From positions 143,942-207,941 of the forward strand of contig DAWERN010000001.1 in NCBI GenBank assembly GCA_043390205.1: a stretch of DNA of 64,000 nucleotides. The letters are read 5' to 3'. The translations under genes and the position numbers were made by a program. A model generated the notes under the pieces. That model was not told where the DNA came from. It did not search any database and was given only the letters and a program-made list of their open reading frames with translations. The DNA is from Candidatus Azoamicus soli. Its GTDB lineage: Bacteria > Pseudomonadota > Gammaproteobacteria > UBA6186 > Azoamicaceae. Below are positions 1-64,000 of this stretch, piece by piece (the stretch's first letter is position 1; every line of letters starts with the position of its first letter).

Positions 1-316
1 TTAATTTAAGAATACAACTAAAAAAATTCGATTTAAACCTATTACTAATATTTAAAAAATACTTAATAAATACAAATTTGTCTGCAAAAATAGTCAACTT
101 CTTATATAAATAAAACACATGCCGTCTATCATTTTTAGCCAGAATTTTAATTAAATCACTGCAATGTACATCTATTAATGCAAAAAAAAAAATACAATCT
201 ATAATATTTAACTTTCCTTTAAAACTAGTTCTAACACCACCGCAGCTAATTTCACCAAACAAACTGTTTATAAAAACAATTTTATAAAAATCGACTTTAT
301 TAAAATTTTTTATCAT
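1..316 (-). CDS. Partial ORF running off the left edge; possibly a degenerate holA (DNA polymerase III delta) by position after leuS
   Basis: Hand translation from ATG at 316 (MIKNFNKVDFYKIVFINSLFGEISCGG...) stays open towards the window edge. The identity rests only on leuS-(lptE)-holA synteny. Confidence 0.35.
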   Translation of the reverse strand, partial: MIKNFNKVDFYKIVFINSLFGEISCGGVRTSFKGKLNIIDCIFFFALIDVHCSDLIKILAKNDRRHVFYLYKKLTIFADKFVFIKYFLNISNRFKSNFFSCILKL

Positions 317-335
317 ATTATCTTATCAAAACATT

Positions 336-2594
336 TTAAATAATTATATTAATCATTTTATTATCTTTATATATAACATTTTTAATATTTTTACCACATA
401 AATATTTTTTAATAACAGAATGTTCTGCTATCAACATTTCTACTTCACACCTAGTGCATTCTCGTTCTACAAAAAGTTTAACTTTAAACTTATTATTAAT
501 AAAAACAAAAATTTCATAACGTTTAATTGTTAAATACATATTTTTTATTTTTTTAGGAATTGATTCATTAATTATACACGTCTCTTCTAATAATATATAT
601 GTCCACATAAAATTTGTAATATGAGGTGTAATAGGTGATAAAAACACCAACAAAGATTTAAAAATTCTTTTGCTTAAATAAATATTACACGATATATCTA
701 ATATTATGTTATCTAACAATTTTAACATTTGCATTAAATATGCAATGATCACATTAAATGAATAGTTTTTTTCTAAATTAACAACTATTTTATCAATAAA
801 ATTATTAAATTTTATAATAATATTCAGCATATCATCATTAAAAAACAAAACACTTTCGTCCAAAATTACATCAACAGATTTATTCCTCAGTAAATAAGAA
901 TAACGCCAAATTTTATCAAGAAATTTTTTACAACCATTAATTCCATTATCTGTCCACTCAAAAGATTGATCAGCAGCAGCAGCAAACATCACAAATAAAC
1001 GCAATGTATCAGCTCCATAACATTCTATTAATTTTTCCTGATCAGGAATGTTACCTTTAGATTTAGATATTTTAGACCCCCCCATCAATACCATACCTTG
1101 AGTTAATAAATTTAAAAAAGGCTCATCACTAAAAACAATACCAAAATCTCTCATAACTTTATAAAAAAATCTAGAATATATTAAATGCATTGTTGCATGT
1201 TCTATTCCACCTATATATTGATCAACAGGTAACCACTTATTTAAACAAAACGTATTAATCCACTCTTTAGACAAATATTTGATATAATACCATGAAGATT
1301 CAAAAAATGTATCAAATGTATCAATTTCTCTATTAGCTATATCACCACATGCATAACATCTTGTTGAATAAAACTTTTTGATATTTTTTAAAGAAAATTT
1401 AGTATGTTTTTTAGCTGTAATAAACGGTAAAACAACGGGTATTTTATTTTCATTTTCAGTAAGAATGCCACAACTATTACAATACAACACTGGTATAGGA
1501 GCCCCCCAATATCTTTGTCTGGAAACACACCAATCTTGTAATTTAAAACATTCTTTCTTTTCTAAACACCTTTTTACTACAATTAATTTAAATAATACAT
1601 TTTTTAAACAAGAGATCTTCACATATTTAAAAAATATATTTTTGAATTTCCAAAAATCAAATTTATCACACATAATCAGTTTATAATTTTCACCTGATAT
1701 ATCATTAAATACGGATTTAATAACTATCTTAATTCTAGCTTTAGTTATTGGATTAAAAATATGTGTAATTTTGTGTTTTTTAAAAAATAAATTCAAGTTA
1801 TGATCTTTAAAAAAAACTATCTTTTTAATTAAATATACAAAAAATATATCATCTAAACATATAGAAACATCAACATTAAATTTTTCAACTCGGAATAAAA
1901 ATTCAAACACAACACTTTTACCAATCCAATTCTTTTGCATCTCTTTTACTTTATTTGGCCAATCAGGTAATAAATCCAAATTATATAATAACTCATTAGC
2001 ATAATCAGTAATCCGAAAATACCACTGTTTAATTTTAACACGCTTTATTAAAGCATTAGATCTCCAACCTCTCCCATTTATTACTTGTTCATTAGCTAAT
2101 ACAGTTTTATCAATCGGATCCCAATTAACAAAACCTTCCTTTTTATACACTAACCCTGAATTATAAAGTTTAATAAAAAACAATTGTTCCCACTTATAAT
2201 AATTTGTATTAGACGTTGTTACTTCTTTACTCCAATCAAAACTAAACCCTAATTTTTTTAACTGATTCCTCATATTTAAAATATTTTGTACAGTCCAATC
2301 TTTAGGAGCTACATTATTTCTGTAAGCTGCATTTTCAGCTGGAATACCAAAGGAATCCCAACCTATGACATTTAAAACATTTTTACCTTTTAATCTAGCA
2401 TATCCAGCAATAATATCACCTATTGTATAATTTCTAATATGACCTATATGTAATTTACCACTAGGATAAGGAAACATACATAAACAATAATATTTATTTT
2501 GCGAATTTAATTCATTAACAATAAAATTTTTATTTTTCTTAAAAATCCATTGCATAAAAATTTCAACATTTTCCGATATATACTTTAAAGTCAT
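336..2594 (-). CDS. leuS: Leucine--tRNA ligase with degenerate CP1 editing domain
   Basis: MFPYPSGKLHIGH, DWCVSRQRYWGAPIP, DQYIGGIEHA, KISKS. Start moved to ATG 2594 (MTLKY) by similarity to the typical N-terminus. Confidence 0.97.
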   Translation of the reverse strand: MTLKYISENVEIFMQWIFKKNKNFIVNELNSQNKYYCLCMFPYPSGKLHIGHIRNYTIGDIIAGYARLKGKNVLNVIGWDSFGIPAENAAYRNNVAPKDWTVQNILNMRNQLKKLGFSFDWSKEVTTSNTNYYKWEQLFFIKLYNSGLVYKKEGFVNWDPIDKTVLANEQVINGRGWRSNALIKRVKIKQWYFRITDYANELLYNLDLLPDWPNKVKEMQKNWIGKSVVFEFLFRVEKFNVDVSICLDDIFFVYLIKKIVFFKDHNLNLFFKKHKITHIFNPITKARIKIVIKSVFNDISGENYKLIMCDKFDFWKFKNIFFKYVKISCLKNVLFKLIVVKRCLEKKECFKLQDWCVSRQRYWGAPIPVLYCNSCGILTENENKIPVVLPFITAKKHTKFSLKNIKKFYSTRCYACGDIANREIDTFDTFFESSWYYIKYLSKEWINTFCLNKWLPVDQYIGGIEHATMHLIYSRFFYKVMRDFGIVFSDEPFLNLLTQGMVLMGGSKISKSKGNIPDQEKLIECYGADTLRLFVMFAAAADQSFEWTDNGINGCKKFLDKIWRYSYLLRNKSVDVILDESVLFFNDDMLNIIIKFNNFIDKIVVNLEKNYSFNVIIAYLMQMLKLLDNIILDISCNIYLSKRIFKSLLVFLSPITPHITNFMWTYILLEETCIINESIPKKIKNMYLTIKRYEIFVFINNKFKVKLFVERECTRCEVEMLIAEHSVIKKYLCGKNIKNVIYKDNKMINIII

Positions 2595-2682
2595 AAATAA
2601 CACACTTTTACTTATATTTAAAAAATATTCAATAATTATTATAGTAAATCTAATATTTTAAAAAAACACCATTCATATTATC

Positions 2683-3717
2683 ATGAAAAAAAAAAAAATA
2701 TTACTAAGTCTGTCAGCTGGTATTGACTCTACAAGCACATTACTACTACTAAAAAAAAATAATTTTTATATAGAAGCTGTATTCATTATAAATTGGACTT
2801 CACTACACTCATGTCAAAATAATAAAGACTTAATACACGCCAAAATTTTATGTAAAAAAATTAAAATAAAATTGAATACAATAAATTTAACAAACCATTA
2901 CTGGTCAATGGTTTTTATAACATTTTTAAAAAAATTAAAAAATGGATTAACTCCAAACCCTGATATAACATGTAATGAAAAAATAAAATTTCAAATATTG
3001 CTAAATTATAGCAAAAAAACATTAAACTTTAACTTTATAGCAACTGGTCATTATGCAACAATTTATAAAAACAAAAAATCAATAGAACTAAGACAATCAG
3101 TCAATTTAGAAAAAGATCAAACTTACTTTTTATCAAAAATAAAAACTAAAAAACTAAAAGCTGTATTATTTCCTATAACAAACTACCAAAAAACAGACAT
3201 AAAATTAATTCTCAGATTTTTAAAATTTATCAATGCAAATAAAAAAAATAGTGTTGGCATTTGTTTTATCGGAAATAATAACTTTAAAAATTTTATAAAA
3301 ATATATTTACACAAAAATTACGGCATTATAAAAAATTCAAACAATAAAAAAATTGGATATCATGAAGGACTACATTTTTATACATTAGGTCAACGCAAAA
3401 CATTTGCTGGTAAAAAAAAAATATGGTATGTATATAAAAAAAACATAAAAACTAACGTATTATATATTTCAACTAATAAATTTATCATATTAAATACACA
3501 TATTATTGAACTATGCAAAACAACTTGTTATTTAAATAACAAAGAAAAAGTTCTTTGTAAAGTTAAACTTAGACACCAAAGCATAACTCTATCATGTATC
3601 TTATATATTAAAAAAAATTTAATAATCATAAAAAAATTATTTAATATGACAGCATCAGGACAATGTATTTCATTTTACAAAAACAATACATGCATAGGCT
3701 ACGGTATAGTAAAATAA
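2683..3717 (+). CDS. mnmA: tRNA 2-thiouridine(34) synthase MnmA
   Basis: LSAGIDS, TPNPDITCNEKIKF, IATGHYA, KDQTYFL, GICFIG, YTLGQR. Confidence 0.95.
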   Translation: MKKKKILLSLSAGIDSTSTLLLLKKNNFYIEAVFIINWTSLHSCQNNKDLIHAKILCKKIKIKLNTINLTNHYWSMVFITFLKKLKNGLTPNPDITCNEKIKFQILLNYSKKTLNFNFIATGHYATIYKNKKSIELRQSVNLEKDQTYFLSKIKTKKLKAVLFPITNYQKTDIKLILRFLKFINANKKNSVGICFIGNNNFKNFIKIYLHKNYGIIKNSNNKKIGYHEGLHFYTLGQRKTFAGKKKIWYVYKKNIKTNVLYISTNKFIILNTHIIELCKTTCYLNNKEKVLCKVKLRHQSITLSCILYIKKNLIIIKKLFNMTASGQCISFYKNNTCIGYGIVK

Positions 3718-3729
3718 TGTAAAAAAATA

Positions 3730-4809
3730 TCACTCAAATACCTCACTGCTATTTTTTTTTAATATAACTATATCATTAGATTGCCCATATAATATAAACA
3801 TATTATTCTTAATAATGTTTAAATATACAAATAAATAAGCCTGTCGTATACCTGCTACATCACATCCATAACTTTTGATATAAATATTATTTTTAAATTT
3901 CACAATACTATAATTATCTATATGAATAAACGATATATGTGTAACTCTAGTTTTAATAATCTTTATAAGCTCAATTAAAATAATATAAGAAGGCATTTTA
4001 TAATTGTTAAAACTTATCCATGCTCGTAAAAGTTCTTTTAACAAAAACTTTGACATATTAATCAAACTTGACACATGTAAAGATTTATAATTAAAAACTG
4101 AACATTTAATAAAAAAATACAAAAATTTATTAACATATCGTACAATATTACTGTTTAAATTCAAATATCTTAAAATTATTCGCTTATTTATGATATGATC
4201 AGTAAAAAAATTATCAATATAGAATCGAATATAATTTCTACTAAGCTTTTTATTATAATTACTTTTGTCAATAATAAATGGAATATTATTTAATAACGCA
4301 TATGATATAATATCTAATTTAGTAATATTTAACAATGGTCTGACTATATTTACCTGTCCAATCCTATTTTTATTTTTAATACTAAGAATACCTACAACAC
4401 CAGATCCACGAATCATTCTCATAAAAATTGTTTCAACTAAATCATTTGTATGTTGTGCTAATAGTAATGTAGTATTTTTCATTAACGTATTTAAAATAAA
4501 ATTAAATCTCACAACTCGAAAATTCTCTTCAAGATTATCTTTATATACTATATTTTTAAAAGTATATGTATATAATCCAACATGATACTTATTACAAATA
4601 TTTTTACAAAAAAAACTCCAAGCATTAGCTTCTGAACTATAACTATGATTTATATGAATAACTTTTAACATATGCTTCTTTCTTAATATTCTACAAGATA
4701 AATCAAGTAATACACTAGAATCAATTCCACCACTATAACCTATATAAACATGTTTATGTAGTATCAACTTTTCATAAAGATTACTAAAATAAAATTTGTC
4801 AAGATTCAT
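3730..4809 (-). CDS. tilS: tRNA(Ile)-lysidine synthetase (C-terminally shortened)
   Basis: GYSGGIDS PP-loop, HINH, AQHTNDLVET, RGSG, IVRPLL, DKSN, RNYIR. Confidence 0.93.
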   Translation of the reverse strand: MNLDKFYFSNLYEKLILHKHVYIGYSGGIDSSVLLDLSCRILRKKHMLKVIHINHSYSSEANAWSFFCKNICNKYHVGLYTYTFKNIVYKDNLEENFRVVRFNFILNTLMKNTTLLLAQHTNDLVETIFMRMIRGSGVVGILSIKNKNRIGQVNIVRPLLNITKLDIISYALLNNIPFIIDKSNYNKKLSRNYIRFYIDNFFTDHIINKRIILRYLNLNSNIVRYVNKFLYFFIKCSVFNYKSLHVSSLINMSKFLLKELLRAWISFNNYKMPSYIILIELIKIIKTRVTHISFIHIDNYSIVKFKNNIYIKSYGCDVAGIRQAYLFVYLNIIKNNMFILYGQSNDIVILKKNSSEVFE

Positions 4810-4921
4810 TTTAAACTACAATTTTGAATATTTTAGTAAAATTTAATATAACTATATTTTAATAACAAAGTATTGTAAAAAAAAAAATATATATATAAAA
4901 ATCAATTTTCTATGATAAAAT

Positions 4922-6778
4922 ATGATAATCCTTATTAATAATAATGAACTAAAAATTAAAGACTACATAAATATAAAAAACTTAATAACAACACATATAT
5001 CTTGCATCAGTATAAATGATATAATAAACGACCAATATTACATAAATATTATAAACTTTTCTCTTCTATTAATTTCACTAAAAAATATAAAAGTTTTAAA
5101 CATACTTAGACATTCCTGCGCACATTTGATGGCCCACGCAATACAAAATATCTATAAAAACGTAAAATTTGCAATAGGTCCTGTAATAAAAAATGGATTT
5201 TATTATGATTTTTTTATTAAAAAAAAAATCACTAACATAGATCTAGTGACAATAGAAAATGAGATGAATATACTAACAAAGAACAGCATTCCCATTACAA
5301 AATATAACATTACCCTGCAAAATGCACGAAAAATATTTAAAAAAAACAAATATAAAACAGAAATATTAAAAAATTTAACAACAAAAATCGTATCATTTTA
5401 TAAACAAAAAAATTTTCTTGATTTATGTCTTGGTCCTCATGTAAAAAACACAAAATTTATAAAATATTTTAAATTAATAAAATTAACTGGCGCTTACTGG
5501 AGAAATAATAATAAAAATGATATGTTATATAGAATATATGGTACCATATGGAATACACAACAGAACTTAAAAAACTTTTTAAATAATAATTATAATAATA
5601 ATATAACTCACAAAAAAATTGGTTTTCAAACTAACTTATTTTGCTTTGAAAAACATTCAACTGGAGTTGTATTTTGGCAAAAAAACGGCTGGTATATTTA
5701 TAGAAAAATAACGACATATCTTCGCATGTTTATTTTTAAAAATAAATTCAATGAAGTCAACACTCCATTAATTCTAAATTCTTTCTTGTTTGATAAATCA
5801 GGTCATACAACCAAATTTAACGCCAATATGTTTAAATATCAAAATGATACTAATATAGATATACTTAAACCTATGAATTGTCCATGTCACATTAATATCT
5901 TCAATAATTTTTATAAAAAAAGCTATAAAGATTTACCATACAGACTATCAGAATTTGGTTCATGTTTCAGAAATGAAGTATCAGGTTCACTTCATGGGTT
6001 AATGCGTCTTAAAAGTTTTACACAAGATGATGGTCATATATTTTGTTCGGAACAACATATAGAAACTGAAATAAAACATTTCATAGTAGATTTAAAAAAT
6101 GTATATTATAATTTTGGTTTTAAAATATTTAAAATAACAATAGCTAAAAGACCTATAAATACTATCGACGATATCCATATATGGGAAAAAGCTGAAGAGT
6201 TATTAGAAAAAATAATAACAAGCTTAAATATAAAATATTTCATATCAAACGATGGTGCTTTTTATGGACCAAAAATAGAAGTATCATTAAAAGATAATAT
6301 AGGTAGATATTGGCAGTGCGGTACAATCCAAATTGATTTTTTTTCAAGTAAACGATTAAATACATATTATTCAGATAAATCAGGGCTACTAAAAGCTCCA
6401 ATAATCCTACATAGAGCTATCTTAGGATCAATAGAACGATTTTTTGGTATTTTAATAGAAAATCGTAATGGTGATATGCCATTTTGGTTAACACCATTTC
6501 AATTTGACATAATATATATAAATCATAAACATTTAAAATATGCAAAAAAAATATATAATGTTATTATTAAAAAATATACAGTAAGATTAAATATATTGAA
6601 TGAACGACTAGAACAAAAAATAAAAAAATGTATTTTGGAAAAAATACCATATATAATTATACTTGGAGACTATGAGGAAAAAAAAAAAATAATAAATATT
6701 AAACATCTAAAATCAAATAAGCGAATTATAATTCCGTTAAATAAATTTATTAGAAAAATGAAACTAAATACAGTATAA
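4922..6778 (+). CDS. thrS: Threonine--tRNA ligase
   Basis: RHSCAH, DLCLGPHV, KPMNCPCH, GLMRLKSFTQDDGH, GAFYGPK, HRAILGSIERF; thrS-infC-rpmI-rplT-pheST synteny. Confidence 0.98.
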   Translation: MIILINNNELKIKDYINIKNLITTHISCISINDIINDQYYINIINFSLLLISLKNIKVLNILRHSCAHLMAHAIQNIYKNVKFAIGPVIKNGFYYDFFIKKKITNIDLVTIENEMNILTKNSIPITKYNITLQNARKIFKKNKYKTEILKNLTTKIVSFYKQKNFLDLCLGPHVKNTKFIKYFKLIKLTGAYWRNNNKNDMLYRIYGTIWNTQQNLKNFLNNNYNNNITHKKIGFQTNLFCFEKHSTGVVFWQKNGWYIYRKITTYLRMFIFKNKFNEVNTPLILNSFLFDKSGHTTKFNANMFKYQNDTNIDILKPMNCPCHINIFNNFYKKSYKDLPYRLSEFGSCFRNEVSGSLHGLMRLKSFTQDDGHIFCSEQHIETEIKHFIVDLKNVYYNFGFKIFKITIAKRPINTIDDIHIWEKAEELLEKIITSLNIKYFISNDGAFYGPKIEVSLKDNIGRYWQCGTIQIDFFSSKRLNTYYSDKSGLLKAPIILHRAILGSIERFFGILIENRNGDMPFWLTPFQFDIIYINHKHLKYAKKIYNVIIKKYTVRLNILNERLEQKIKKCILEKIPYIIILGDYEEKKKIINIKHLKSNKRIIIPLNKFIRKMKLNTV

Positions 6779-6788
6779 GGAGTATATT

Positions 6789-7343
6789 ATTGATAAATCA
6801 ACAAGAAGAATAAATAATGAAATAAAAGCTGATAGAGTTAGATTAATTAATGATAAAGGAGAACAATTAGGTATAGTGTACTTAGCTGAAGCACTAAAAA
6901 TAGCTCAAAACTCAAATTTAGATTTAGTTGAAATTCAACCAAAAGCAAATCCTCCAGTTACCAAAGTAATGAACTACGGAAAATTTAAATTTTCTCTTAA
7001 CAAAAAACGTATAACTGTAAAAAAAAAACAAAAAGATTTAAGAATTAAAGAAGTAAAATTTAGACCTAATACAGCTGATAATGACTATTTAATAAAAATT
7101 AAAACTATTAAAAGCTTTCTACAAAACGGTAATAAAGCTAAAATAACTGTTTGCTTTAAAGGTAGAGAGATTATTCATAAAAAAAATGGTATAGATTTAA
7201 TAAATAAAATTTGCCTAGATTTATCTACTTGTAGTAAAATAGAAATAACACCTAAACTTGAAGGTAAAAATATAACAACAATAATACGTCCTATAAAATA
7301 TATAGAACAAAAAGATGAAAATAATAAAATTGAAAATCAGTAA
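6789..7343 (+). CDS. infC: Translation initiation factor IF-3 (ATT start)
   Basis: AAGGAG at 6777-6782, then in-frame ATT at 6789 giving [30 protein letters not shown]; KEVKFRP and FKGRE motifs. Confidence 0.96.
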
Positions 7344-7518
7344 AAGTATAACAAAACGTTTTAAAAAATTAAAAAATGGAAAATTTAAACATAAACAATC
7401 ACATTTAAAACATATTTTAACAAAAAAATCTGCAAAAAGAAAAAGACATTTACGTAATTTAAAATTTGTTGATAAATCGCACATTAAAACATTAAAAGAA
7501 GCATTGCAAAATTATTAA
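7315..7518 (+). CDS. rpmI: 50S ribosomal protein L35
   Basis: [34 protein letters not shown]; synteny. Confidence 0.95.
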
Positions 7519-7531
7519 TGGAAATATTATT

Positions 7532-7879
7532 ATGACAAGAGTAAAAAGAGGAGTAGTGGCAAGAAAACGCCACAAAAAAATTTTAAATCAAGCTAAAGGT
7601 TATTACGGAGCAAAAAGTCGCGTATTTAGAGTTGCAAAACAAGCTGTTATAAAAGCACAACAATATTCTTATAGAGATAGAAAAGTAAAAAAAAGAGACT
7701 TTAGAAGTACTTGGATTAAAATAATTAATGCTGCATTAAAACAATATAATATGTCATATTCTTCTTTTATTAAAAAATTGACTATACATGAAATAAAAAT
7801 AAATAGAAAAATGCTTTATTTTTTAATAACAACCACAGAGTTCTCTATAAATAAACTAATACAAAACACAACTATATAA
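7532..7879 (+). CDS. rplT: 50S ribosomal protein L20
   Basis: [27 protein letters not shown]...[12 protein letters not shown]. Confidence 0.98.
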
Positions 7880-7891
7880 CTATTACTCTAT

Positions 7892-8887
7892 ATGTCTCCA
7901 GAAAAAATATTAGATTTTTTTTTAAAAGAATATTCAACAGTAAAAAATAAAGAAGAACTTCATAATTTAAAAATAAAATATCTAGGTCGTAATGGATTTA
8001 TACCTGTAACATTCAAAAAAGCAAAAGTGTTAAACTTAACAGATACATTATCGTTTTTCACTAATTTAAACAAAATAAAAACTTATATCACTCAGAAAAT
8101 TACTCAAAAATATGATTTTTTTTTACTTGAAAAATCATATGATGCTTTAGATATAACATTACCTGGGTATGGGTTTGAATTTGGTGTTAAACATATCATT
8201 TCAACCACTATAAACGAAATAGATTTTTTTTTTACTAGATTGGGATTTAATATTTACAATGGTTATGAAATAGATTCAACATATTATAATTTTGAAGCCC
8301 TCAATATGCCATTATCACATCCATCTAGAAATTTAAACGAAACATTTTACATTTCTGATGATATATTACTTAGAACGCACACGTCGAATATGCAGGTACA
8401 TATTATGCAATCAAGTATTCCACCATTAAAAATTATATCTCATGGCAAAGTTTATAGAAAAGATTACGATGCATCACACACTCCTATGTTTCATCAAGTA
8501 GAAGCTATAGTAATAGATAAAAATATTTCTATTGCAAATTTAAAATATTTATTATTTGAATTCTTACAATTCTTTTTTAAAAAAGAAATTAAAATTAATT
8601 TTCGTTCGTCATACTTTCCATTTACAGAACCGTCTATGGAACTAGACATACAATGTATTAATTGCTTAGGTAAAAAATGTACGTTATGTAAATATAGTGG
8701 TTGGATAGAAATTCTAGGCTGTGGGATGATTCACTCAAATGTTTTAACAAATTGTAATATAGATAAAAAAAAATATACCGGATTAGCTTTTGGTCTAGGA
8801 ATCGAAAGATTAACAATGATAAAATATAACATAACTGATATAAGATTATATTTTGAAAATAATCTCGAATTTTTAAAGCAATTTTAG
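7892..8887 (+). CDS. pheS: Phenylalanine--tRNA ligase alpha subunit
   Basis: LLRTHTS, HTPMFHQVE, YFPFTEPS, WIEILGCG, AFGLGIERL. Confidence 0.98.
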   Translation: MSPEKILDFFLKEYSTVKNKEELHNLKIKYLGRNGFIPVTFKKAKVLNLTDTLSFFTNLNKIKTYITQKITQKYDFFLLEKSYDALDITLPGYGFEFGVKHIISTTINEIDFFFTRLGFNIYNGYEIDSTYYNFEALNMPLSHPSRNLNETFYISDDILLRTHTSNMQVHIMQSSIPPLKIISHGKVYRKDYDASHTPMFHQVEAIVIDKNISIANLKYLLFEFLQFFFKKEIKINFRSSYFPFTEPSMELDIQCINCLGKKCTLCKYSGWIEILGCGMIHSNVLTNCNIDKKKYTGLAFGLGIERLTMIKYNITDIRLYFENNLEFLKQF

Positions 8888-8890
8888 TTT

Positions 8891-11542: not shown

Positions 11543-11545
11543 TAA

Positions 11546-13274: not shown

Positions 13275-13277
13275 CCA

Positions 13278-13292
13278 GCTATTTTGAATTAT

Positions 13293-13301: not shown

Positions 13302-16184
<2,883 letters not shown>

Positions 16185-48262: not shown

Positions 48263-48273
48263 CTTATATTAAA

Positions 48274-51437: not shown

Positions 51438-51461
51438 AATGTATAGTTGTAAAAAAATATG

Positions 51462-53071: not shown

Positions 53072-53372
53072 GTGTATTATTATCTCCAAACAAATTTATA
53101 AATTTGTTATATATTTTTTTATATGTCTGATCAATTAAGTTTGAATATTTGAAATCTCTTTCTGTTATAATTTTATTATTTATTGTTTGACCTATTAAAT
53201 TTTTTATTTCTCTTGGATTATCTGTGTTAAATAGTTTTTTTATGTTTTTTTTTATCACGAGAAGTTCTTCTAGAGTTATTAATATATCTCTAGTTTTTTT
53301 GTTTTTAAGAATTTTTTTTCCAAAGTATTTATATGTTAAACTTGTGTGTATAAAATTTTTTGTTTTTGTCAT
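53061..53372 (-). CDS. Hypothetical 103-aa basic protein inside the nos operon
   Basis: Intact ATG ORF filling the nosY-nosL gap (7 nt after the nosY stop, overlapping the nosL start); no recognisable motif. Confidence 0.55.
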   Translation of the reverse strand: MTKTKNFIHTSLTYKYFGKKILKNKKTRDILITLEELLVIKKNIKKLFNTDNPREIKNLIGQTINNKIITERDFKYSNLIDQTYKKIYNKFINLFGDNNTHVS

Positions 53373-53379
53373 ATAACTA

Positions 53380-54183: not shown

Positions 54184-54185
54184 GA

Positions 54186-55106: not shown

Positions 55107-56338
55107 ATCATTGCTCTCATTAATGGAAATTTGTCAACGATTGAATATTTTCTAAAAGCTGGAAATTGATTTTCAATTTTTTGTAGTAAAATTAACACTG
55201 GACTGTTTAACATAATCTTTAAAATTGGATAAGAAAATATTAACCAATCATTAATGTTTGTGACATAAAACAATTGATCACCTATATTATCCATATTTAA
55301 ATCCCATCCTAGATAATGTGACCAAAAATTGCCAGTTTTGCTAGAATTCCATATTAATTTATTATTATCTAAGTATTGTGATTGTAATCTATTACTAATT
55401 ACATTATTATCATACACCAAATTATCTGTACCGCCACTATATATTTTAATTCCTATATTGTTTTTTATAATGTCATTATTTATTATATCATTAAAATAGC
55501 TATTTCCAAGTAGAATACCATCATTATTATATAATGATTTATTTCTTAAAATTCTGCTATATAAAACATCTCTAAAAAACAATCCATGGTCGATATTTAA
55601 ATATGAAAAATTATTTACAAGATCAACATATTTAGAATACATTACAGCAATACCAATTAGAGAATCACTAATCATATTTGATGCAACTATACATCTGTTG
55701 CTAAACATATAATGAATACCAAATCTAGTATTTAGTAAAAAGTTTTTGTTGATAGAAATTTCTATTGAATTAGAAATATAAATACCGTCTCTACCGTTTA
55801 TTATAAAATTATTTGTAATAATGGTTCCATTGCTTTTATATATATTGATTGTATTTCCATTATCAGATAACATTGGTTCAGTAGTTCCTATGAATGTATT
55901 ATTTAATATATAACTATAAGATGAAGAATTTATCCAAATACCAAACCCGCATTCTGAAAAAAAATTATTTAAAATATACACATTATTTGAATTAATAAAA
56001 ACGCATGAATCTTTGTGAATCATGCTTTTTCCACTATTATAAAAATAAATACCGTCTATTTTAACATTATTGGCTGTTATTGTTACAATTGATCCATTAG
56101 CGTTTGATGTAAAAATCACTAATCCAGAAGCTATTAGTTTTATTGATTTATCTATTATATAATTTCCTATATATATTCCTGATTGTAATATTACTGTATT
56201 ATTTTCTTTAATATTTTTTAAACAATTTGAAAATTCACAAGCGTTCGTTAAATGGATACTAGAACAGTTAAGATTCATGGAATAGAATAATCCAAAAAAA
56301 AGTAAGAATTTTAAATTACCACCAAATATTTTTTTCAT
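55100..56338 (-). CDS. nosD: Nitrous oxide reductase maturation protein NosD
   Basis: Beta-helix repeats, RDGIY, RFGIHYMFS, GNFWS.Y.GWD.N.D.IGD, DKFPLM. Confidence 0.95.
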   Translation of the reverse strand: MKKIFGGNLKFLLFFGLFYSMNLNCSSIHLTNACEFSNCLKNIKENNTVILQSGIYIGNYIIDKSIKLIASGLVIFTSNANGSIVTITANNVKIDGIYFYNSGKSMIHKDSCVFINSNNVYILNNFFSECGFGIWINSSSYSYILNNTFIGTTEPMLSDNGNTINIYKSNGTIITNNFIINGRDGIYISNSIEISINKNFLLNTRFGIHYMFSNRCIVASNMISDSLIGIAVMYSKYVDLVNNFSYLNIDHGLFFRDVLYSRILRNKSLYNNDGILLGNSYFNDIINNDIIKNNIGIKIYSGGTDNLVYDNNVISNRLQSQYLDNNKLIWNSSKTGNFWSHYLGWDLNMDNIGDQLFYVTNINDWLIFSYPILKIMLNSPVLILLQKIENQFPAFRKYSIVDKFPLMRAMIW

Positions 56339-58319
56339 ATTTATTCCGTAGGTTTTTCTGTTTAATTGGTGGACATGTTGTGTCGTTATACATATTTGTT
56401 ATGCAAGTAAAACATCCAAAACATTTTTTTGAGTCGATTAAACCTGTTGATGTTATTGCTTTTGAATTGCAATTTTTTTCGCATATGTGACAAACAGCGC
56501 ATGTCCCTCTTCTTCTTAATTTTAATAAAACATTAAATGATAATAGCGATAGAAAAGCGCCTAATGGACAAATAAATCTGCAAAAAAACCTATATATAAA
56601 AATACTTATTACAATTAAGCAGACTGTGTAAATTGAAATGTAATAAGGTCTATGTATAATTCCTATAATCCATGTTGTTTTAAATGGTTCTAGTTCTGCA
56701 ATTAATTCTGCTAATGCAATACTATAAGTAGACAGTACTATTAATATGAAAAATATTATATACCTTAGATATGTTACTTGTTTATAATAGTGCCATTTAA
56801 AATGCATATTCAATATTAAGTTTCTTAATTTAAATATAAGTTCTTGTAACGCTCCAAAAGGACATATCCATCCACAAAATAATGCTTTTCCCCAGATAAA
56901 AATTGTACAAAAAATCATTAACCATGATAAAAAAATATATGGATCAAATAAAAATACTTCTAAATTTTTTATGTTATCTATTAAAGCAAATATGTTTACA
57001 ACAGATGGTTGCGCTTCCAGTAATATGCCTAATATGAAAACATCTAACATTAAAATACTTGTATAAATAATAGAAAGAACCACGGTATGTTTTGCAAGTG
57101 AATTGCGTGTTAAAAAAATTATTATTACACTACACCATACGCATAAAAATAAACTTATGTAAAATATTTTATCTTGCCATATTTGAAGCCACTTTATTGT
57201 ATATTGTTTACAAAATTCTTTTGGTATGGTGTATTTGATGTTGAATGTTTTATAATCTAATATTAAAGCTAAAGTCCATGGTTCCCATGGCTTATATTTT
57301 TTATTTGTTATTATAAAAATACCAGATTCTTTGATTTTATTTAGATCGATTAAATTCAGTTCATATACGTTTTGAAAATTTGTATCTCTAAATGTGAATA
57401 TATTATCGTTTTGTTCTATTCTAAATCTATCATAAATACCACCTCGTACAAATCCACTTCCTTTAAAGCTCCATGTACCATTATTTAATATTATTATTGC
57501 TGAATCATTGTCAGATAATTGTTCTAATATGTCATAATAATAATCGCCCAATAAATTTTTGCCTATTGATGGATGTTTTATATCAGCAAAATATATATCA
57601 ACTAATAAGTTTTTTTTTTCGTTTGGTGCTTCTTTTAGTTGGTTGTTTAATGAATAGTGTTTAATTGCTCCAATATTTATTAATTTTTTCCACGACATTT
57701 TTTTAAACAAAATATTTAAAGAACCAGAATGTATGTTATTTTTATCTATAAATTTTAGTATTATTCCTGCATTTTTACAGCTTTCAAGTATAGTTTCGTG
57801 TAGAATTAATGATGTAACTGTTGCTCCAGATATTATTGGTATACTTAATTCGTAGCTAGCGCTTTCACCTATACTAATTTTTTTGTTTATATTTTTATTT
57901 TTATAAAAAGAAAGTGCTTCTAGTAATTTTTCTATTGGTATACCTGTTAGTAATATTGGTTCGCTGTGTTTTATTAATTTTAAATTGGTTATTATACCGT
58001 TAGATTGTAAATGAATAAGTAAATCTAAGGATTTACCTGAATAAGCTACTATATTTGTCATATCCGTACTGTAAAATAAATAACTTTTTATAGTTTTAGA
58101 GGGTTTTTCATCTATTATTTCAATAATTTTTTCATTAATACAATTGTATAACATCCCTGTTTTTTTAATTGATAAATGTAAGTCTTTTTCTATATTGCAT
58201 ATAGTTTTTTCATGCTGATCTAATACTTCAGTATTAGATGTAACTGGTAACATTATCAATAAATATAATAAGAACCTTAAAATTATTTTTAGGTTCTTTG
58301 AGTATTTTAATAAGAACAA
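56316..58319 (-). CDS. nosR: NosR (FMN-binding periplasmic domain, TM region, polyferredoxin)
   Basis: AYSGK, HSEPILL.GIP, ISGATVT (FMN-Thr), SFKGSGFVRGGIYDR, FCGWICPFGALQE, FCRFICPLGA, CAVCHICEKNC, CFGCFTC. Confidence 0.96.
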   Translation of the reverse strand: MFLLKYSKNLKIILRFLLYLLIMLPVTSNTEVLDQHEKTICNIEKDLHLSIKKTGMLYNCINEKIIEIIDEKPSKTIKSYLFYSTDMTNIVAYSGKSLDLLIHLQSNGIITNLKLIKHSEPILLTGIPIEKLLEALSFYKNKNINKKISIGESASYELSIPIISGATVTSLILHETILESCKNAGIILKFIDKNNIHSGSLNILFKKMSWKKLINIGAIKHYSLNNQLKEAPNEKKNLLVDIYFADIKHPSIGKNLLGDYYYDILEQLSDNDSAIIILNNGTWSFKGSGFVRGGIYDRFRIEQNDNIFTFRDTNFQNVYELNLIDLNKIKESGIFIITNKKYKPWEPWTLALILDYKTFNIKYTIPKEFCKQYTIKWLQIWQDKIFYISLFLCVWCSVIIIFLTRNSLAKHTVVLSIIYTSILMLDVFILGILLEAQPSVVNIFALIDNIKNLEVFLFDPYIFLSWLMIFCTIFIWGKALFCGWICPFGALQELIFKLRNLILNMHFKWHYYKQVTYLRYIIFFILIVLSTYSIALAELIAELEPFKTTWIIGIIHRPYYISIYTVCLIVISIFIYRFFCRFICPLGAFLSLLSFNVLLKLRRRGTCAVCHICEKNCNSKAITSTGLIDSKKCFGCFTCITNMYNDTTCPPIKQKNLRNKYEKNIWW

Positions 58320-58328
58320 AATAAATCT

Positions 58329-60164
58329 CTAACTTACTATAAATCTGCCTCTCATTTCTAGATGAAGGGCATGACAAAACCATGTGCAATAATACCAGAA
58401 CATCCCTTTTCTATTAGCTTTAAATGTCACTGAAACTGTTTCTCCAGGAGATATTCCGAAATTTATATTGTGTTCACTTAAACAAAATCCATGAGTTAGA
58501 TCTTTTACTTTATCTAGATTTGTTTGAATTATAGTAATTTCATTACCTAAATTAACGTGAATTTCTTTTATACCATAATTTGGAGCAATGCTTGACATAA
58601 TGATGTAAACTTTGTTATCTTTTTTTATAATTTTATTAGCTCCAAATTCAAATCCTAACTCTTTGACTAGACTGCGTTCGTAAGAAAATTTTCTATCATT
58701 TATATTCCATAAACTTATAGTTTTTATAAGTTTTCTATCACATATGATACAATCGTGTGGCTCTGGTACAACTGGTCCGTCGTGTAATAATTTCATTGTG
58801 CCATCTGATATACCAATTAATTGATCATTATCAGGGAAAAAAGGTCCAGCTGGTAAGAATCTATCTTTTGAAAATTTATTTAATGATACCACAAAATTGC
58901 CATCAGCATTTTTAGTTTCACTCATAGAAGCATTTATATGGCCAGGTTGGTAATGCACATCTAGCTTTTGAATTAAATAATCTTTATCTTTTTTAATAGC
59001 TTTTTCTATATTCCACATTGAGACAACAGAATCTAAAAATAATGTTGTATATGCATTGCCTTTACCGTCAAATGCAGTGTGGAGTGGTCCTAATCCTATT
59101 TCTGGTTCTGCTATAACACATTCTCTTGGATTATTTATTTTTCCATCAAATGCGGCATCCACTTTATCCAAAGCGATTATTGTTGTTGTTGGAGATAATT
59201 TCCCAGCACATATAGCATATTTACCGTCAGGAGAAATATTTACGCCATGTGGATTTTTAGGAACTGGGATATATAAGACGTATGGATTTTTTCCTCTGCC
59301 ATCTATTATAGGTGCATCAGACTCTTTAAATTTTATTCCTTTTCCTAATTTTACTGCTGTTTCGATTCTTTCTAAATTAAAAATTGTTAAATGGTCTCTG
59401 TCTGCAGACATCATGTCTTCTAATAGAACTCCTTCTTCTGAGTTATAACATGTTCCCATTGAATATTTACCTTGATAATCTGTTGCACATAAATCCAAAT
59501 TGCCATCGACCATTATTTGCCATCGTACTTTCATTGTTTTAGCATCTATACAGGTATGCATAGCTACATATTTTTTTGGATTGTCTAGATCTCTTCCATC
59601 ATTTGGTAATGGTGTTCTAAATTCTGCATTACAATATACAGCTTCCAATTTATTTCTGGATGGAAATATACCGTGTGTGCCTTGTGAATATGGTATTTTT
59701 GTAATAGCATCTGTTTCCATGACATCTAATCTAATTCTAGCTAATCTTCCAGTACTTTTGTCATTTACAAAAGCAAATTTACCATCATATGTACCATCTT
59801 GATATGATAGGTGTACATGATGTGTATCACCTATTGTATAACCCTTTAATAATTGTTTACTATAATTCGTAATACCCCATCCTAATGTGCAATCATAATT
59901 GAACACTGGTATGCGTTTTAGCTCTCTCATAGAAGGGACTGCAATTAGTCTTACTTCTCCTGAGTGTCCACCTGACCATAATCCGTAATATCTATCAAGT
60001 TCTCCAGGTTTTACTATGTGTGTAACAATTTTTTTTTTACTATCACTTTTTATAGTAGTCATAACGCTGGAAGCAAAATAAAGTGCAGCAGCAGCAACTG
60101 TTGTACCTAATGCCTTCTTTAAGAAAATGCGTCTATTTTTTGATAGTATAATATCTTTAGTCAT
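58329..60164 (-). CDS. nosZ: Nitrous oxide reductase, clade I (Tat-exported)
   Basis: NRRIFLK twin-Arg signal, GDTHH, HG, PKNPHGVN, GLGPLHT, HYQPGH, EPHD, CuA WYYCTWFCHALHLEM. Confidence 0.99.
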   Translation of the reverse strand: MTKDIILSKNRRIFLKKALGTTVAAAALYFASSVMTTIKSDSKKKIVTHIVKPGELDRYYGLWSGGHSGEVRLIAVPSMRELKRIPVFNYDCTLGWGITNYSKQLLKGYTIGDTHHVHLSYQDGTYDGKFAFVNDKSTGRLARIRLDVMETDAITKIPYSQGTHGIFPSRNKLEAVYCNAEFRTPLPNDGRDLDNPKKYVAMHTCIDAKTMKVRWQIMVDGNLDLCATDYQGKYSMGTCYNSEEGVLLEDMMSADRDHLTIFNLERIETAVKLGKGIKFKESDAPIIDGRGKNPYVLYIPVPKNPHGVNISPDGKYAICAGKLSPTTTIIALDKVDAAFDGKINNPRECVIAEPEIGLGPLHTAFDGKGNAYTTLFLDSVVSMWNIEKAIKKDKDYLIQKLDVHYQPGHINASMSETKNADGNFVVSLNKFSKDRFLPAGPFFPDNDQLIGISDGTMKLLHDGPVVPEPHDCIICDRKLIKTISLWNINDRKFSYERSLVKELGFEFGANKIIKKDNKVYIIMSSIAPNYGIKEIHVNLGNEITIIQTNLDKVKDLTHGFCLSEHNINFGISPGETVSVTFKANRKGMFWYYCTWFCHALHLEMRGRFIVS

Positions 60165-60276: not shown

Positions 60277-60912
60277 ATGAAAAAAAATGTAATTATGTTT
60301 GATTTAAATACAGAAAAGATAAATGATGTTTTTAATATATATAAGCAAGAAAAAATAATAAATATAAAGCTTAATATATTTGATCTTGAACAACTTGAGA
60401 CTTCTTGCTTATATTTATTTGAAGAAACCTCAAAATCTTTTGAAATTTTTTTTCTATTATTAAAAAAGAATAAAGGAATGATGTGTATTGTTATAAATAG
60501 CAAATATCCTGAAAAAGCAGAATTAATTGAACAAGTGAATTATACTATATTACAGAAAAATATAACTGAAAATATTCTTTATGTTTTTGAATTTATTCAA
60601 TATATATTAAAAATGCAAACTGCATTACTATTTATTTTTTTATTGCATGAATTAGATAAACATCGATTTTTAATACAAAATCAAATATATAATTCCTTTT
60701 TTATAGAGTTAATGAATAGCATTATACATGAATACGGTGGTGTTAAAAAAATTTTTATTAATTGCATTTCAACATCTAATGTTCAAATGGTATATCAACA
60801 AAAAATATATCCTTATAATATAGATATTAATAAACACGAACAACTTAACCTGTTATTCTTATGTGAACTTTTATTAAAAATTAAAATAACAAATAAAATA
60901 ATAAAATTATAA
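60277..60912 (+). CDS. Degenerate short-chain dehydrogenase-fold protein (YciK-like)
   Basis: FDLEQLETSC..L, IEQVNY..LQ..I..NI, IIHEY...IFINCI, IYPY pattern resembles YciK; the Gly-rich and YxxxK motifs are absent. Confidence 0.45.
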   Translation: MKKNVIMFDLNTEKINDVFNIYKQEKIINIKLNIFDLEQLETSCLYLFEETSKSFEIFFLLLKKNKGMMCIVINSKYPEKAELIEQVNYTILQKNITENILYVFEFIQYILKMQTALLFIFLLHELDKHRFLIQNQIYNSFFIELMNSIIHEYGGVKKIFINCISTSNVQMVYQQKIYPYNIDINKHEQLNLLFLCELLLKIKITNKIIKL

Positions 60913-61773
60913 GTGATATAATATTCGCATTACTGCACTTCGTGCGGCTAAATTATTTTGCAATTCATTTATTGATGGTTTTTCTTCTATGCTGTTATGA
61001 TACATTTTAAGATATTTTATTGTTAAATGTGTTTTTATTATTCTATCTTCTAAAGAATTGAAGCTAATTAATATTAAAATACCATTAGGTAGAAAAAAAT
61101 GTTTAATATTTTTTAAGAAAATATTTAATGCTATTACTTCATTATTGACAAATATTCTAATTAAGCAAAAAATTTTATTTGAATTAAAATTAAATTTTTG
61201 AGTTGTGCGAGTGACTTTTGATAGTAATGATCGTAAATTTCTAGTTGTTTTAAACATATAATGTTTTTTAAAACTTAATATATTCTTAGTTATTTTATAT
61301 GCTAATTTTGGTGTACTTAGAGTCTTAAATATATCAAGTAATTCAGTTTTTTTTGCCTTATTTAACCAATCTAATGCTCTTATTTTTTGATTTTTATTTA
61401 TTCTCATATCAAGAAATCCGTTGTTTTTTGTATTTAATCCAATATTAGAATTAAATAATTGTGCTGTAGATATACCTAAATCTGTTAATATGCTTGTATA
61501 TATTTTTATGTTATAACATGTTGATAACATAGAAAACGATTCGAATGGTATATTGAATATATGTATATTCTGATGGGGTTTTACAATATTTTTAGAGTAT
61601 ATATGTATTGTGGTAGTGTTTTTGTCTAATGTTATGATGTGAGCATCAGAGTTTAAATATTTTAACATTTCGTTTGTATGCCCACCTGATCCATACGTAG
61701 AATCTATACAGAAGCACCAACAGTATATATCTAAGTATTTAATAGTTTCTTGTAACATTACTGGTTTATGCAT
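60907..61773 (-). CDS. rsmH: 16S rRNA m4C1402 methyltransferase RsmH
   Basis: MHKPVMLQET, DSTYGSGGH, DLGIS..Q, LDMR, RIFVNNE, ISFNSLEDRIIK, ARSA.MR. Confidence 0.95.
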   Translation of the reverse strand: MHKPVMLQETIKYLDIYCWCFCIDSTYGSGGHTNEMLKYLNSDAHIITLDKNTTTIHIYSKNIVKPHQNIHIFNIPFESFSMLSTCYNIKIYTSILTDLGISTAQLFNSNIGLNTKNNGFLDMRINKNQKIRALDWLNKAKKTELLDIFKTLSTPKLAYKITKNILSFKKHYMFKTTRNLRSLLSKVTRTTQKFNFNSNKIFCLIRIFVNNEVIALNIFLKNIKHFFLPNGILILISFNSLEDRIIKTHLTIKYLKMYHNSIEEKPSINELQNNLAARSAVMRILYHL

Positions 61774-62119
61774 AAATTTAGATAGTAAATAATTATAATA
61801 ATTATAAAAAGTTTTAAAGAATCATATATGTAGGTTATGCAACAATATTGTATTTTAAGTTATTAATATTATATTTATATAATTGTATGATAAATATTAA
61901 TACATTAATGTGAACAATATTATAACATACAATATTTGTAAAAAAAAAATAATAATAATTTGAATATACATAATAATAATCTTTAACATCAAGTATAAAT
62001 AAATAAAACTATATATTAATAATTCAGTTAGTGTTCTTATGTTTTTATTAAGCCGTGCGATTACACTATTACAGAATAAGCATGTATAATTTTAAATTAA
62101 TATTAATTATTATTAAATT

Positions 62120-62674
62120 TTATATTTTATTTAATTCGTCGATTTTTTTTAACATTATTTTTTCAATTTCATTAATGGCATTATCTATGTTTTTTTGTAT
62201 AGATGTCAAAAAAATTTTCTCTTCATCTTGTGAAATAGATTTATTCTTTGTTAAATTTTTTATATTAGTATTTGTATTACGTCTAATATTTCTAATAGTT
62301 ATTTTATGGTGTTCTGCTAAGTCTTTTATCTTTTTTATGAAGACTTGTCTTCTCTCAAGTGTATTTTTTGGATATATAATTTTGATTGTATCTGTATAGA
62401 TTGATGGAGTTAATTCCATGTTTAATTTTATTATTTCGTTATAAATTGTTTGTAGTATGTTTTTATCAAAAGGTTTTATATTAACTGTATTATTGTCAAT
62501 TATTATATTAGAAATCTGATCTAATTTGTGATATGAATTGTAGTAAGATATTGTGATATCTTCAATAACTGAAATATTAATTTTATTTAATGAATATTTT
62601 TGTAGTTCTTTTTTAAATGCAGTTATTGCAATGTTTAAGTCTTGTTTTAAAAATTCTAAATGCTTGTTTAACAT
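62120..62674 (-). CDS. frr: Ribosome recycling factor
   Basis: IKPFDK, TLERR, KITIRNIRR, ISQDE; downstream of tsf. Confidence 0.93.
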   Translation of the reverse strand: MLNKHLEFLKQDLNIAITAFKKELQKYSLNKINISVIEDITISYYNSYHKLDQISNIIIDNNTVNIKPFDKNILQTIYNEIIKLNMELTPSIYTDTIKIIYPKNTLERRQVFIKKIKDLAEHHKITIRNIRRNTNTNIKNLTKNKSISQDEEKIFLTSIQKNIDNAINEIEKIMLKKIDELNKI

Positions 62675-62679
62675 GATAA

Positions 62680-63462
62680 TTAACTTATTTTTTCACCTAC
62701 TTCAAATCTCACAAAAGTCAATAACGTAAATTTATTTGAAATTAATTCTTTTATACATGTTTTTTGCTCTTTTATGAACGGTTGTTCTAATAAGACTTGT
62801 TCTTTTAAAAATCTACTTATATCTTTATTAATATTTCTTTCTTGATTTAAAATGTTTTGTGGTATATCTTCTTGAGCTACATATTGTGGTTTCATTGCTG
62901 TTATTTGCATTGCAATATCATTATATAGTTGCATGTATTGTTCTAAAAATTGATTAGCAACAAATATTGAAGCTATTTTAATATTTTGATTTACACGATG
63001 TGTATATCCAAATATAAAATCGTCTTTTGTTGATAATTTTGTTAATCTTCTTACTATTATGTTTTCGCCTAATTGTGTTATTAAATCTATTCTAGCTAGT
63101 TCTAATTCTTTAGGCAGTATAATATTTGTTGATAAATTTATATTTTTAGAGTTTTTTTCATCATTTAAAAAATAATTATTTATTTTTTCTAACAATTTTT
63201 GGATTTCGTCTGATTTTACTACAAAATCAGTTTCACAATTAATTTCTGTCATGATAGCAGTTTTTTTATTTGTACTAATGTTTAACCCTATTAATCCTGC
63301 AGTGGTAATTCTTTCTGCTTTTAATGCTGCTTGTAAAATACCTTTTTCACGTAAATATAATATTGATTTTTCTATATTCATGTCATTTACAAGTAAGGCT
63401 TTTTGACATTCTGTTATACTGATACCTGTTTTATTTCTTAATTCTTTTATTTTTTCTAACAT
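62680..63462 (-). CDS. tsf: Elongation factor Ts
   Basis: IKELRNKTG..ECQKAL, LREKG, EINCETDFV, LGENI, LLEQPF, FVRFEVGE. Confidence 0.97.
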   Translation of the reverse strand: MLEKIKELRNKTGISITECQKALLVNDMNIEKSILYLREKGILQAALKAERITTAGLIGLNISTNKKTAIMTEINCETDFVVKSDEIQKLLEKINNYFLNDEKNSKNINLSTNIILPKELELARIDLITQLGENIIVRRLTKLSTKDDFIFGYTHRVNQNIKIASIFVANQFLEQYMQLYNDIAMQITAMKPQYVAQEDIPQNILNQERNINKDISRFLKEQVLLEQPFIKEQKTCIKELISNKFTLLTFVRFEVGEKIS

Positions 63463-63474
63463 ATCTGTGTCATG

Positions 63475-64000
63475 TTAATTGAGTTTTTGTTTTTCTTTTA
63501 TTTTTATTATGTGATTTGAGATTAAGTTCAAGTAAAATTTAATGGAGTCTGTGGAGTCATCATTTCCTGGAATAACATAATCGATATTTTCTGGATTACT
63601 ATTTGAATCAACTATACCAATAATGGGAATATTTAATTTTTTTGCTTCTAAGACAGCTATTGTTTCATAATTTATATCGATTATAAACAATGCTGATGGT
63701 AATATAGTCATATTTTTTATTCCTTGCAAATTCAGTTTTAATTTTGCTAGTTGTTTAGTTGCTTTTAATGTTTCTTTTTTTGTTAGATATTCGTTTTTAT
63801 TTTTTTTAAAATTATCTTCTAATTGTATCAATTTGGATATTGAATTTTTTATTGTATTATAATTTGTTAATGATCCGCCTAACCAGCGAAAATTAACATA
63901 AGGCATATTTATTTTTTCTGCATATATTTTTATTAAATTTGATGCCTGACGTTTTGTACCAACAAATAATATATTACCATTATTAATGATAATGTTTTCT
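63475..64000 (-). CDS. rpsB: 30S ribosomal protein S2 (5' part outside the window)
   Basis: FVGTKRQA upstream of the listed ORF, RWLGGSLTN, EAKKLNIP, DSNSNP, IPGNDD. Confidence 0.97.
   Translation of the reverse strand, partial: ENIIINNGNILFVGTKRQASNLIKIYAEKINMPYVNFRWLGGSLTNYNTIKNSISKLIQLEDNFKKNKNEYLTKKETLKATKQLAKLKLNLQGIKNMTILPSALFIIDINYETIAVLEAKKLNIPIIGIVDSNSNPENIDYVIPGNDDSTDSIKFYLNLISNHIIKIKEKQKLN

Follow-up and report, generated by a model that had tools for sequence, protein, structure and literature searches.

Respiratory genes in a 64-kb window from the reduced genome of 'Candidatus Azoamicus soli'

A stretch of bacterial DNA of 64,000 bp (hereafter the window) was analyzed with respect to its genomic origin, its respiratory genes and the lifestyle that these genes imply. 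With high confidence, these 64 kb belong to the published genome of 'Candidatus (Ca.) Azoamicus soli' (family Azoamicaceae, order UBA6186/Azoamicales, Gammaproteobacteria), and the explanation published for this organism, that of a respiratory symbiont, applies to it. A first reading of the sequence (hereafter the original prediction) had diagnosed an Azoamicus-type symbiont, and this diagnosis was right: the 16S ribosomal RNA (rRNA) gene falls inside the Azoamicus clade, and instead of a large genome without ATP/ADP translocase, a genome of 284 kb with one gene for such a translocase, tlcA, was found. The organism itself is already known, having been published and named in 2024, and is not a new discovery.

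Identity of the genome and its place among relatives

The whole genome consists of one contig of 284,432 bp with a guanine-plus-cytosine (GC) content of 25.09%, within which the window represents bases 143,942-207,941. The strong AT bias pointed out by the original prediction was confirmed by the GC content of the window of 25.4%, only the rRNA operon being higher (34-36%). A total of 34 transfer RNA (tRNA) genes were detected by ARAGORN in the whole genome. The published record of A. soli, a circular metagenome-assembled genome (GCA_043390205.1) obtained from Ohio groundwater metagenomes, gives 284432 bp, 25.1% GC, 34 tRNA and 0 transfer-messenger RNA (tmRNA) (Speth et al. 2024, Nat Commun 15:9682, PMC11549363, Supplementary Table 1). 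The truncated RNase E gene at window positions 11546-13126 corresponds, after addition of 143,941, to the published position 155487-157067 to the base. The published SohB remnant at 189132-189343 is located at window positions 45191-45402 inside a gap of 951 bp, and the order of the published soli genes 185-221 is identical to that in the window. The presence of the cbb3 oxidase and the absence of mdh and maeA also agree with the published genome, and nothing is different in the sequence; the sole difference in annotation is the tmRNA, for which the paper counts zero and Rfam finds one (see below). Membership in the species A. soli, for which an average nucleotide identity (ANI) of at least 95% to GCA_043390205.1 is set, was established indirectly: the two genomes agree in length, GC content, number of tRNA genes, gene order and the positions of two features. 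Among public sequencing runs, the stretch was found only in three DNA metagenomes of groundwater from one 2019 study, and in no RNA run; this origin is consistent with the groundwater in Ohio from which the paper reports the genome, and one of the three runs may be that from which it was assembled.

Genes account for 94.9% of the window, with a median distance of 9 bp between neighbors and overlaps at 20 of the 71 junctions, in agreement with the near-zero intergenic space described in the original prediction. Together with the length and GC content of the whole genome, this value lies within the range of reduction used here for Azoamicaceae (a size of about 234-374 kb, 20-26% GC and more than 90% coding sequence).

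In a maximum-likelihood tree of 16S rRNA, A. soli was placed within, and not outside, the Azoamicus clade, forming with a support of 100/100 a group of five members with the genomes G002-G005 of our comparison set, including that of A. ciliaticola (G004). The Azoamicus clade is sister (99/99) to two Azosocius genomes, and members of the family with larger genomes are located outside. The 16S identity is 90-91% to the other Azoamicus and 86-87% to Azosocius. Comparison of the open reading frames (ORFs) of A. soli with those of A. ciliaticola yielded 314 reciprocal best hits genome-wide, on average 58% identical, and the window is fully collinear with positions 148008-212104 of the A. ciliaticola genome, no rearrangement being detected.

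A. ciliaticola (292,520 bp; Graf et al. 2021, Nature 591:445) shares with A. soli the genus-level clade and the set of genes for denitrification, complex II, twin-arginine translocation (Tat) and TlcA, but differs in that it is devoid of the cbb3 oxidase and keeps both mdh and an intact sohB, the 16S identity being about 91%. Azosocius agrarius and Azosocius aquiferis (G015, G021) belong to the same family and carry the same respiratory inventory as A. soli, including ccoN, but their genomes are larger (about 352 kb) and contain two tlcA instead of one as well as both mdh and maeA. The nos cluster of Azosocius is also arranged differently, with the gene for cytochrome c5 located between nosR and nosD.

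Respiratory genes and their conservation

Proteins of the window were named by Pfam and NCBIfam scans, by which nearly all of them were identified, and RNA genes by Rfam and ARAGORN. Respiratory genes occupy 18,175 bp or 28.4% of the window (29.1% after addition of tatA and an orphan ORF in the nos cluster), close to the share of roughly 30% given in the original prediction. Every respiratory gene named therein is present and uninterrupted, as judged by Pfam and, in the case of TatA, by the ORF translation.

Complex II is encoded by the operon sdhC-sdhD-sdhA-sdhB on the minus strand (20069-23266; Pfam), and the SdhA flavinylation factor by sdhE, also on the minus strand (49769-50029; Pfam Sdh5, E = 1e-13). 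The maturation pair of cNOR, norQ (MoxR-type AAA+ protein; Pfam AAA_5 and CbbQ_C) and norD (Pfam VWA), is located on the plus strand (23431-26089), is listed as soli genes 186-187 in the published table, and is convergent with the nitrite/nitric oxide (NO) module on the minus strand (26086-30992; Pfam). In the order of transcription, this module includes the genes for monohaem cytochrome c5 (30624-30992), di-haem NorC (29839-30534; 231 amino acids with two CxxCH motifs), NorB (28482-29822), NirK (27446-28456), an FGE/NirV-like protein (26639-27424) and the SCO copper chaperone (26086-26658), all on the minus strand.

The nitrous oxide (N2O) reductase cluster is organized as nosZ-nosR-nosD-nosF-nosY-orf103-nosL on the minus strand (52550-60164; Pfam), with nosZ at 58329-60164 and nosL at 52550-53089. 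The orphan ORF between nosY and nosL (53061-53372, minus strand) encodes a Lys-rich protein of 103 amino acids without family match; a positional orthologue with 43% identity is present in A. ciliaticola, and the ORF was listed as 'unknown' and limited to the three Azoamicus genomes (PMC11549363). The Tat pore subunit needed for export of NosZ is encoded by tatA on the plus strand (32965-33156; 63 amino acids), which was recognized by the TatA N-terminal helix motif, corresponds to the published soli gene 196 and is 73% identical to the A. ciliaticola orthologue. tatC is present elsewhere in the genome.

The catalytic motifs of the denitrification enzymes are intact. Against its best solved relative, AniA of Neisseria gonorrhoeae (1kbv), NirK gave an alignment of 305 residues (E = 6e-128), in which the copper-ligand segments (His-rich, Cys-containing and His..Met) are conserved, as expected for an AniA-type enzyme. 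Residues 1-433 of NorB align with Pseudomonas aeruginosa cNOR (3o0r_B, E = 5e-113) with conservation of WVEG..E, GHHY and HGH; these His/Glu motifs of NorB, together with the core domain of NorC and its second CxxCH domain, identify the enzyme as a cNOR. NosZ carries a twin-arginine signal (RR-x-F-L-K), both nos_propeller domains of Pfam and a C-terminal Cys/His/Met motif for CuA, and was assigned to clade I (Tat-dependent) based on the Tat signal, CuA, the adjacent nosR and the presence of both tatA and tatC.

The location of a small cytochrome c5 gene beside that of an AniA-type NirK is similar to the AniA/c5/cNOR branch of Neisseria, in which c5 gives electrons to AniA (PMC11549363). Unlike the Neisseria branch, NorC of A. 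soli is a di-haem protein of 231 amino acids, and the enzymes are from other donors, nirK clustering with Bacteroidota/Ignavibacteria-type and norB with Bdellovibrionota-type sequences. In a contig collection, after removal of the A. soli genome itself and near records, homologues of NirK were detected in many phyla at 54-65% identity. Homologues of NorC with 226-238 amino acids, the same Pfam domains and about 50% identity were found in free-living Bdellovibrionaceae, Leptospiraceae and Spirochaetia. Since these free-living homologues share both length and domains, the idea that di-haem NorC is a symbiont-specific fusion was rejected; di-haem NorC came with a horizontally acquired cNOR, and its second haem domain predates the symbiosis.

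Metagenomic sequences contain more than 60 distinct clusters (90% identity) of NorC at 60-85% identity to that of A. soli, mostly on short contigs, and these clusters fit with the wide diversity reported since. The nearest one (85%) is carried on a contig of 70 kb, which may belong to an organism more closely related to A. soli than those whose genomes have been named.

The respiratory proteins differ from the rest of the window in the level of conservation. The six catalytic subunits SdhA, SdhB, NirK, NorB, NorC and NosZ are on average 78.5% identical to those of A. ciliaticola (range 77-82%; SdhA 77%, SdhB 77% and NosZ 79%), as compared with 57% for the 14 accessory and anchor proteins and 49.1% for the products of the 39 non-respiratory genes of the window. 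The difference between catalytic and non-respiratory proteins is significant (Mann-Whitney p = 1e-4). The far higher conservation of catalytic subunits indicates that respiration is the most strongly conserved function in the stretch.

The remaining part of the chain was looked for by six-frame searches of the whole genome with marker proteins, complexes I and III being represented by one subunit each and complex V by two. All the markers were found, namely narG, nuoD, cytochrome b, the alpha and beta subunits of ATP synthase, a cytochrome c maturation gene, ccoN and tlcA; together with sdhCDAB, complexes I, II, III and V are therefore retained. Nitrate reductase was identified by narG (genome positions 54819-58505, 1972 bits), the only nar subunit searched separately, and the cbb3 oxidase by an intact ccoN (20923-22296, 709 bits). 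tlcA is present in one copy (119651-121132, 565 bits) as an open frame of 524 codons. With narG, nirK, norCB, norQD and nosZRDFYL, the gene set for denitrification is complete. The original prediction had described a denitrifying symbiont with respiration from nitrite to N2. The genes from nitrite to N2 are all present and intact in the window; the pathway of the organism, however, runs from nitrate to N2 because narG is encoded elsewhere, and the organism is not a strict denitrifier because the cbb3 oxidase is also present.

Only a single match to Cytochrom_C_asm (PF01578) was observed in the genome (19892-20485). It belongs to a CcsA-type open frame of 565 codons, upstream of ccoN and beside the cco cluster. 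Just upstream of this CcsA-type gene, a ResB-like protein is encoded (soli genes 20-21), and the ccm system was reported for A. viridis only (PMC11549363). This arrangement points to maturation of cytochrome c by System II (CcsBA-type) and not by ccm.

Electron flow, lifestyle and competing explanations

Genome identity, gene content, intact catalytic motifs, phylogenetic position and the contrast in conservation are established here, and on this basis a path of electrons can be proposed. Complex II (SdhCDAB with SdhE) would deliver electrons of succinate to the quinone pool and complex I those of NADH. Quinol would be used directly by NarGHI, encoded elsewhere, or be oxidized through bc1 and small c-type cytochromes by NirK, cNOR and NosZ or by the cbb3 oxidase; cytochrome c5 is among these carriers and presumably takes electrons from bc1, which is also encoded elsewhere. 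NirK would then reduce nitrite to NO, cNOR with its di-haem NorC would reduce NO to N2O, and NosZ would reduce N2O to N2. As to the assembly of these enzymes, NorQ and NorD are predicted to load NorB with its non-haem iron, SCO and NosL to handle copper, and the NirV-like protein to participate also in the maturation of metal centers. NosDFY would build CuZ, NosR would act as electron donor and maintenance protein of NosZ, and TatA and TatC would export folded NosZ. Such a complete chain could end at either nitrogen oxides or oxygen, and the proton-motive force generated would drive ATP synthase. By analogy with A. ciliaticola, the single TlcA is thought to swap ATP for ADP of the host.

Intracellular life within a plagiopylean ciliate, expression of the genes and an outward flow of ATP would likewise be expected for A. 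soli from what has been published on its relatives. Several points weigh against this interpretation. Only a partial plagiopylean 18S rRNA fragment was obtained in the original paper from the pooled data of soli and viridis (PMC11549363). The direction of transport by TlcA is not readable from sequence, and the lack of mdh and maeA leaves more than one candidate electron donor. The identity with A. soli, in addition, was deduced from the agreement in exact length, base composition, counts, feature positions and gene order and not from an ANI value.

One alternative is that denitrification is secondary and that the organism lives mainly by oxygen respiration via the cbb3 oxidase in micro-oxic groundwater. 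The presence of ccoN in an intact form agrees with this possibility, and transcripts of ccoN from Ca. Azosocius aquiferis occur in oxic as well as anoxic wells (PMC11549363). Nevertheless, NirK, NorB and NosZ are intact and belong to the most conserved proteins of the window, and nirK, norB and nosZ are the top transcripts in relatives (PMC11549363), so that a mainly oxygen-respiring organism is rather unlikely. The two modes are not mutually exclusive, and judging from its gene set, A. soli can probably also respire oxygen.

A second alternative is that the bacterium is an energy parasite, in which TlcA imports ATP of the host as in Rickettsia and Chlamydia and respiration serves only the bacterium. 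The Azoamicus tlcA was reported to be derived from Rickettsiales, where such carriers import ATP (PMC11549363). The supply of fuel by the bacterium itself looks thin after the loss of mdh, maeA and, according to the paper, sucCD. Against this, complexes I, II, III and V are retained in a genome of only 284 kb, along with four denitrification enzymes, all of their maturation genes and the cbb3 oxidase; the catalytic subunits of this machinery are the most conserved proteins, and its loss is what would be expected of an ATP importer; and transcripts of tlcA and of the respiratory genes rank among the most abundant in A. ciliaticola. The contrast in conservation is a prediction of the respiratory-symbiont model and argues against a simple energy parasite. 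Parasitism of this kind is considered quite improbable.

The original prediction had also considered a possibly new lineage. This suggestion failed since the type genome published for A. soli and the genome analyzed here are the same: although the closest other species representative shows only 91% 16S identity, proteins are only about 58% identical to those of A. ciliaticola, and the unnamed metagenomic NorC variants at 60-85% identity indicate that undescribed diversity exists, an undescribed lineage or species of Azoamicaceae is practically dismissed by the agreement with A. soli in size, GC content, number of tRNA genes, gene order and the positions of two pseudogenes, and by the divergence from relatives, which fits with the ANI of about 76% that the paper gives for soli and ciliaticola (PMC11549363).

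Within the respiratory-symbiont model, the source of electrons needs separate consideration. By six-frame searches, mdh and maeA, the genes for malate-oxidizing enzymes, were not found in A. soli, while the same searches detected mdh in all four relatives examined (G003, G004, G015 and G021) and maeA in three of the four; this result confirms the statement in the paper (PMC11549363). Despite this loss, nuoD and sdhCDAB are intact, and complex I, as judged by nuoD, is apparently intact as well. A tentative proposal as to the fuel is that the chain is fed mainly by succinate of the host via sdhCDAB, or by NADH from a host-encoded dehydrogenase that is imported; both ideas were already raised by the original authors (PMC11549363). 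If the former is true, the symbiont re-oxidizes what anaerobic mitochondria of the host typically form as their end product. If the latter is true, protein is imported from host to symbiont, which is a hallmark of organelles.

Housekeeping genes, gene decay and implications

The window includes one rRNA operon, six tRNA genes and about 65 protein genes, most of which are involved in translation, RNA processing and protein export. Nine aminoacyl-tRNA synthetases are encoded by ten genes, and these are accompanied by genes for ribosomal proteins, IF3, EF-Ts, RRF, RF2, LepA, Era, SecA, LepB and SmpB. Neither a DNA-binding regulator domain nor a biosynthetic operon was detected in the window by Pfam scans, which upholds the absence of biosynthetic operons and transcription factors claimed originally; genes of biosynthesis type occur only singly, namely acpS, tdk, mnmA, tilS and a tsaB-like ORF. 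The description of housekeeping proteins as eroded was a fair one. RNase E (526 amino acids), PheT (665 amino acids) and IF3 (155 amino acids, without the start of the N-terminal domain) are short, and the matches to TsaB and BamE stay below the family thresholds.

The first housekeeping block (1-13126; Pfam) consists of an ORF cut by the window start, leuS (NCBIfam score 670 bits), mnmA, tilS, thrS, infC, rpmI, rplT, pheS, pheT, the tsaB-like ORF (10889-11542, plus strand; TIGR03725, E = 1.7e-5, 24.9 bits against a cutoff of 69) and the truncated rne. It is followed on the minus strand by the single rRNA operon (13165-18000; Rfam and ARAGORN), in which 16S (16453-18000), tRNA-Ile, tRNA-Ala, 23S (13293-16191) and 5S (13165-13272) are arranged in this order. 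Next to the operon, tyrS, ybeY (NCBIfam YbeY, 64.5 bits), tRNA-Val(GAC) and rpsT are tightly packed or overlapping (18132-20026; Pfam and ARAGORN). Genes for the peroxiredoxin AhpC and a periplasmic protease of DegP/HhoB type are located on the minus strand (31010-32845; Pfam).

A second housekeeping block (33281-44521; Pfam and small ORFs) includes smpB, a BamE-like ORF, rpmG, rpmB, rplY, tRNA-Gln, rnt, lepA, lepB, era, acpS, serS, ssb, secA and mlaA. The ORF beside smpB (33721-34041, minus strand; 106 amino acids) is very weakly BamE-like (E = 0.039), and both this ORF and the tsaB-like ORF at 10889-11542 look like heavily eroded housekeeping genes. Farther downstream are tdk, metG, grxD, tRNA-Val(UAC), tRNA-Asp and a SurA/PpiD-like ORF of 500 amino acids (45473-49776; Pfam and ARAGORN), and, on the minus strand, lysS and prfB, the RF2 gene in one uninterrupted frame (50031-52547; Pfam and published names). 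The window ends with an ORF of 211 amino acids without family match, rsmH, frr, tsf and rpsB, the last being cut by the window end (60277-64000; Pfam). Pfam and NCBIfam gave nothing usable for this ORF of 211 amino acids (60277-60912), for that of 105 amino acids at 2-316 and for the orphan ORF of the nos cluster; a match to YciI among these family-less ORFs (E = 0.045) was treated as noise.

The largest non-coding stretch of the window is 951 bp in length (44522-45472, plus strand) and contains decayed sohB, the gene for an S49 peptidase. When the intact SohB of A. ciliaticola (321 amino acids, encoded at 193147-194112) was used as a tblastn query, a match was obtained at about 45109-45403 in two frames with E = 1e-12. 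By this alignment, the only large gap in the window is a frameshifted sohB remnant, and an assignment to decayed adenylate kinase was rejected.

A full-length tmRNA gene was identified outside the window at genome positions 110603-110941 on the minus strand (Rfam RF00023, 73.8 bits against a gathering threshold of 47). Both tRNA-like ends are intact, and the encoded tag is ANKNYNYAVAA. No tmRNA was detected by ARAGORN in the whole genome, but this result is superseded by the covariance model of Rfam, and the zero in the published table reflects a gene that ARAGORN failed to detect. The presence of the tmRNA gene explains why smpB (33281-33721) is kept.

The cumulative GC skew has its genome-wide minimum around window position 34,000 (32000-36000, about 178 kb of the genome) and its maximum at about 78 kb of the genome. 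The minimum would place the replication origin near tatA and smpB. No DnaA above threshold was detected by six-frame search of the genome, and the window shows no enrichment of DnaA boxes (29 when one mismatch is allowed, 24.4 being expected), so that no origin was called from them.

What is added here to the record of A. soli are the tmRNA gene, the assignment of the gap to sohB, the di-haem NorC with its acquired cNOR, the contrast in conservation between catalytic and non-respiratory proteins, and the absence of mdh and maeA in six-frame searches. The window adds no new organism, and its value is that of a check: the lifestyle was diagnosed correctly from 64 kb of DNA without tools. To our knowledge, no endosymbionts other than Azoamicaceae have been proposed to serve their hosts, beside mitochondria, as a second respiratory 'organelle' that supplies ATP from denitrification. 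The family bears in this way on both the origin of organelles and the nitrogen cycling by protists.

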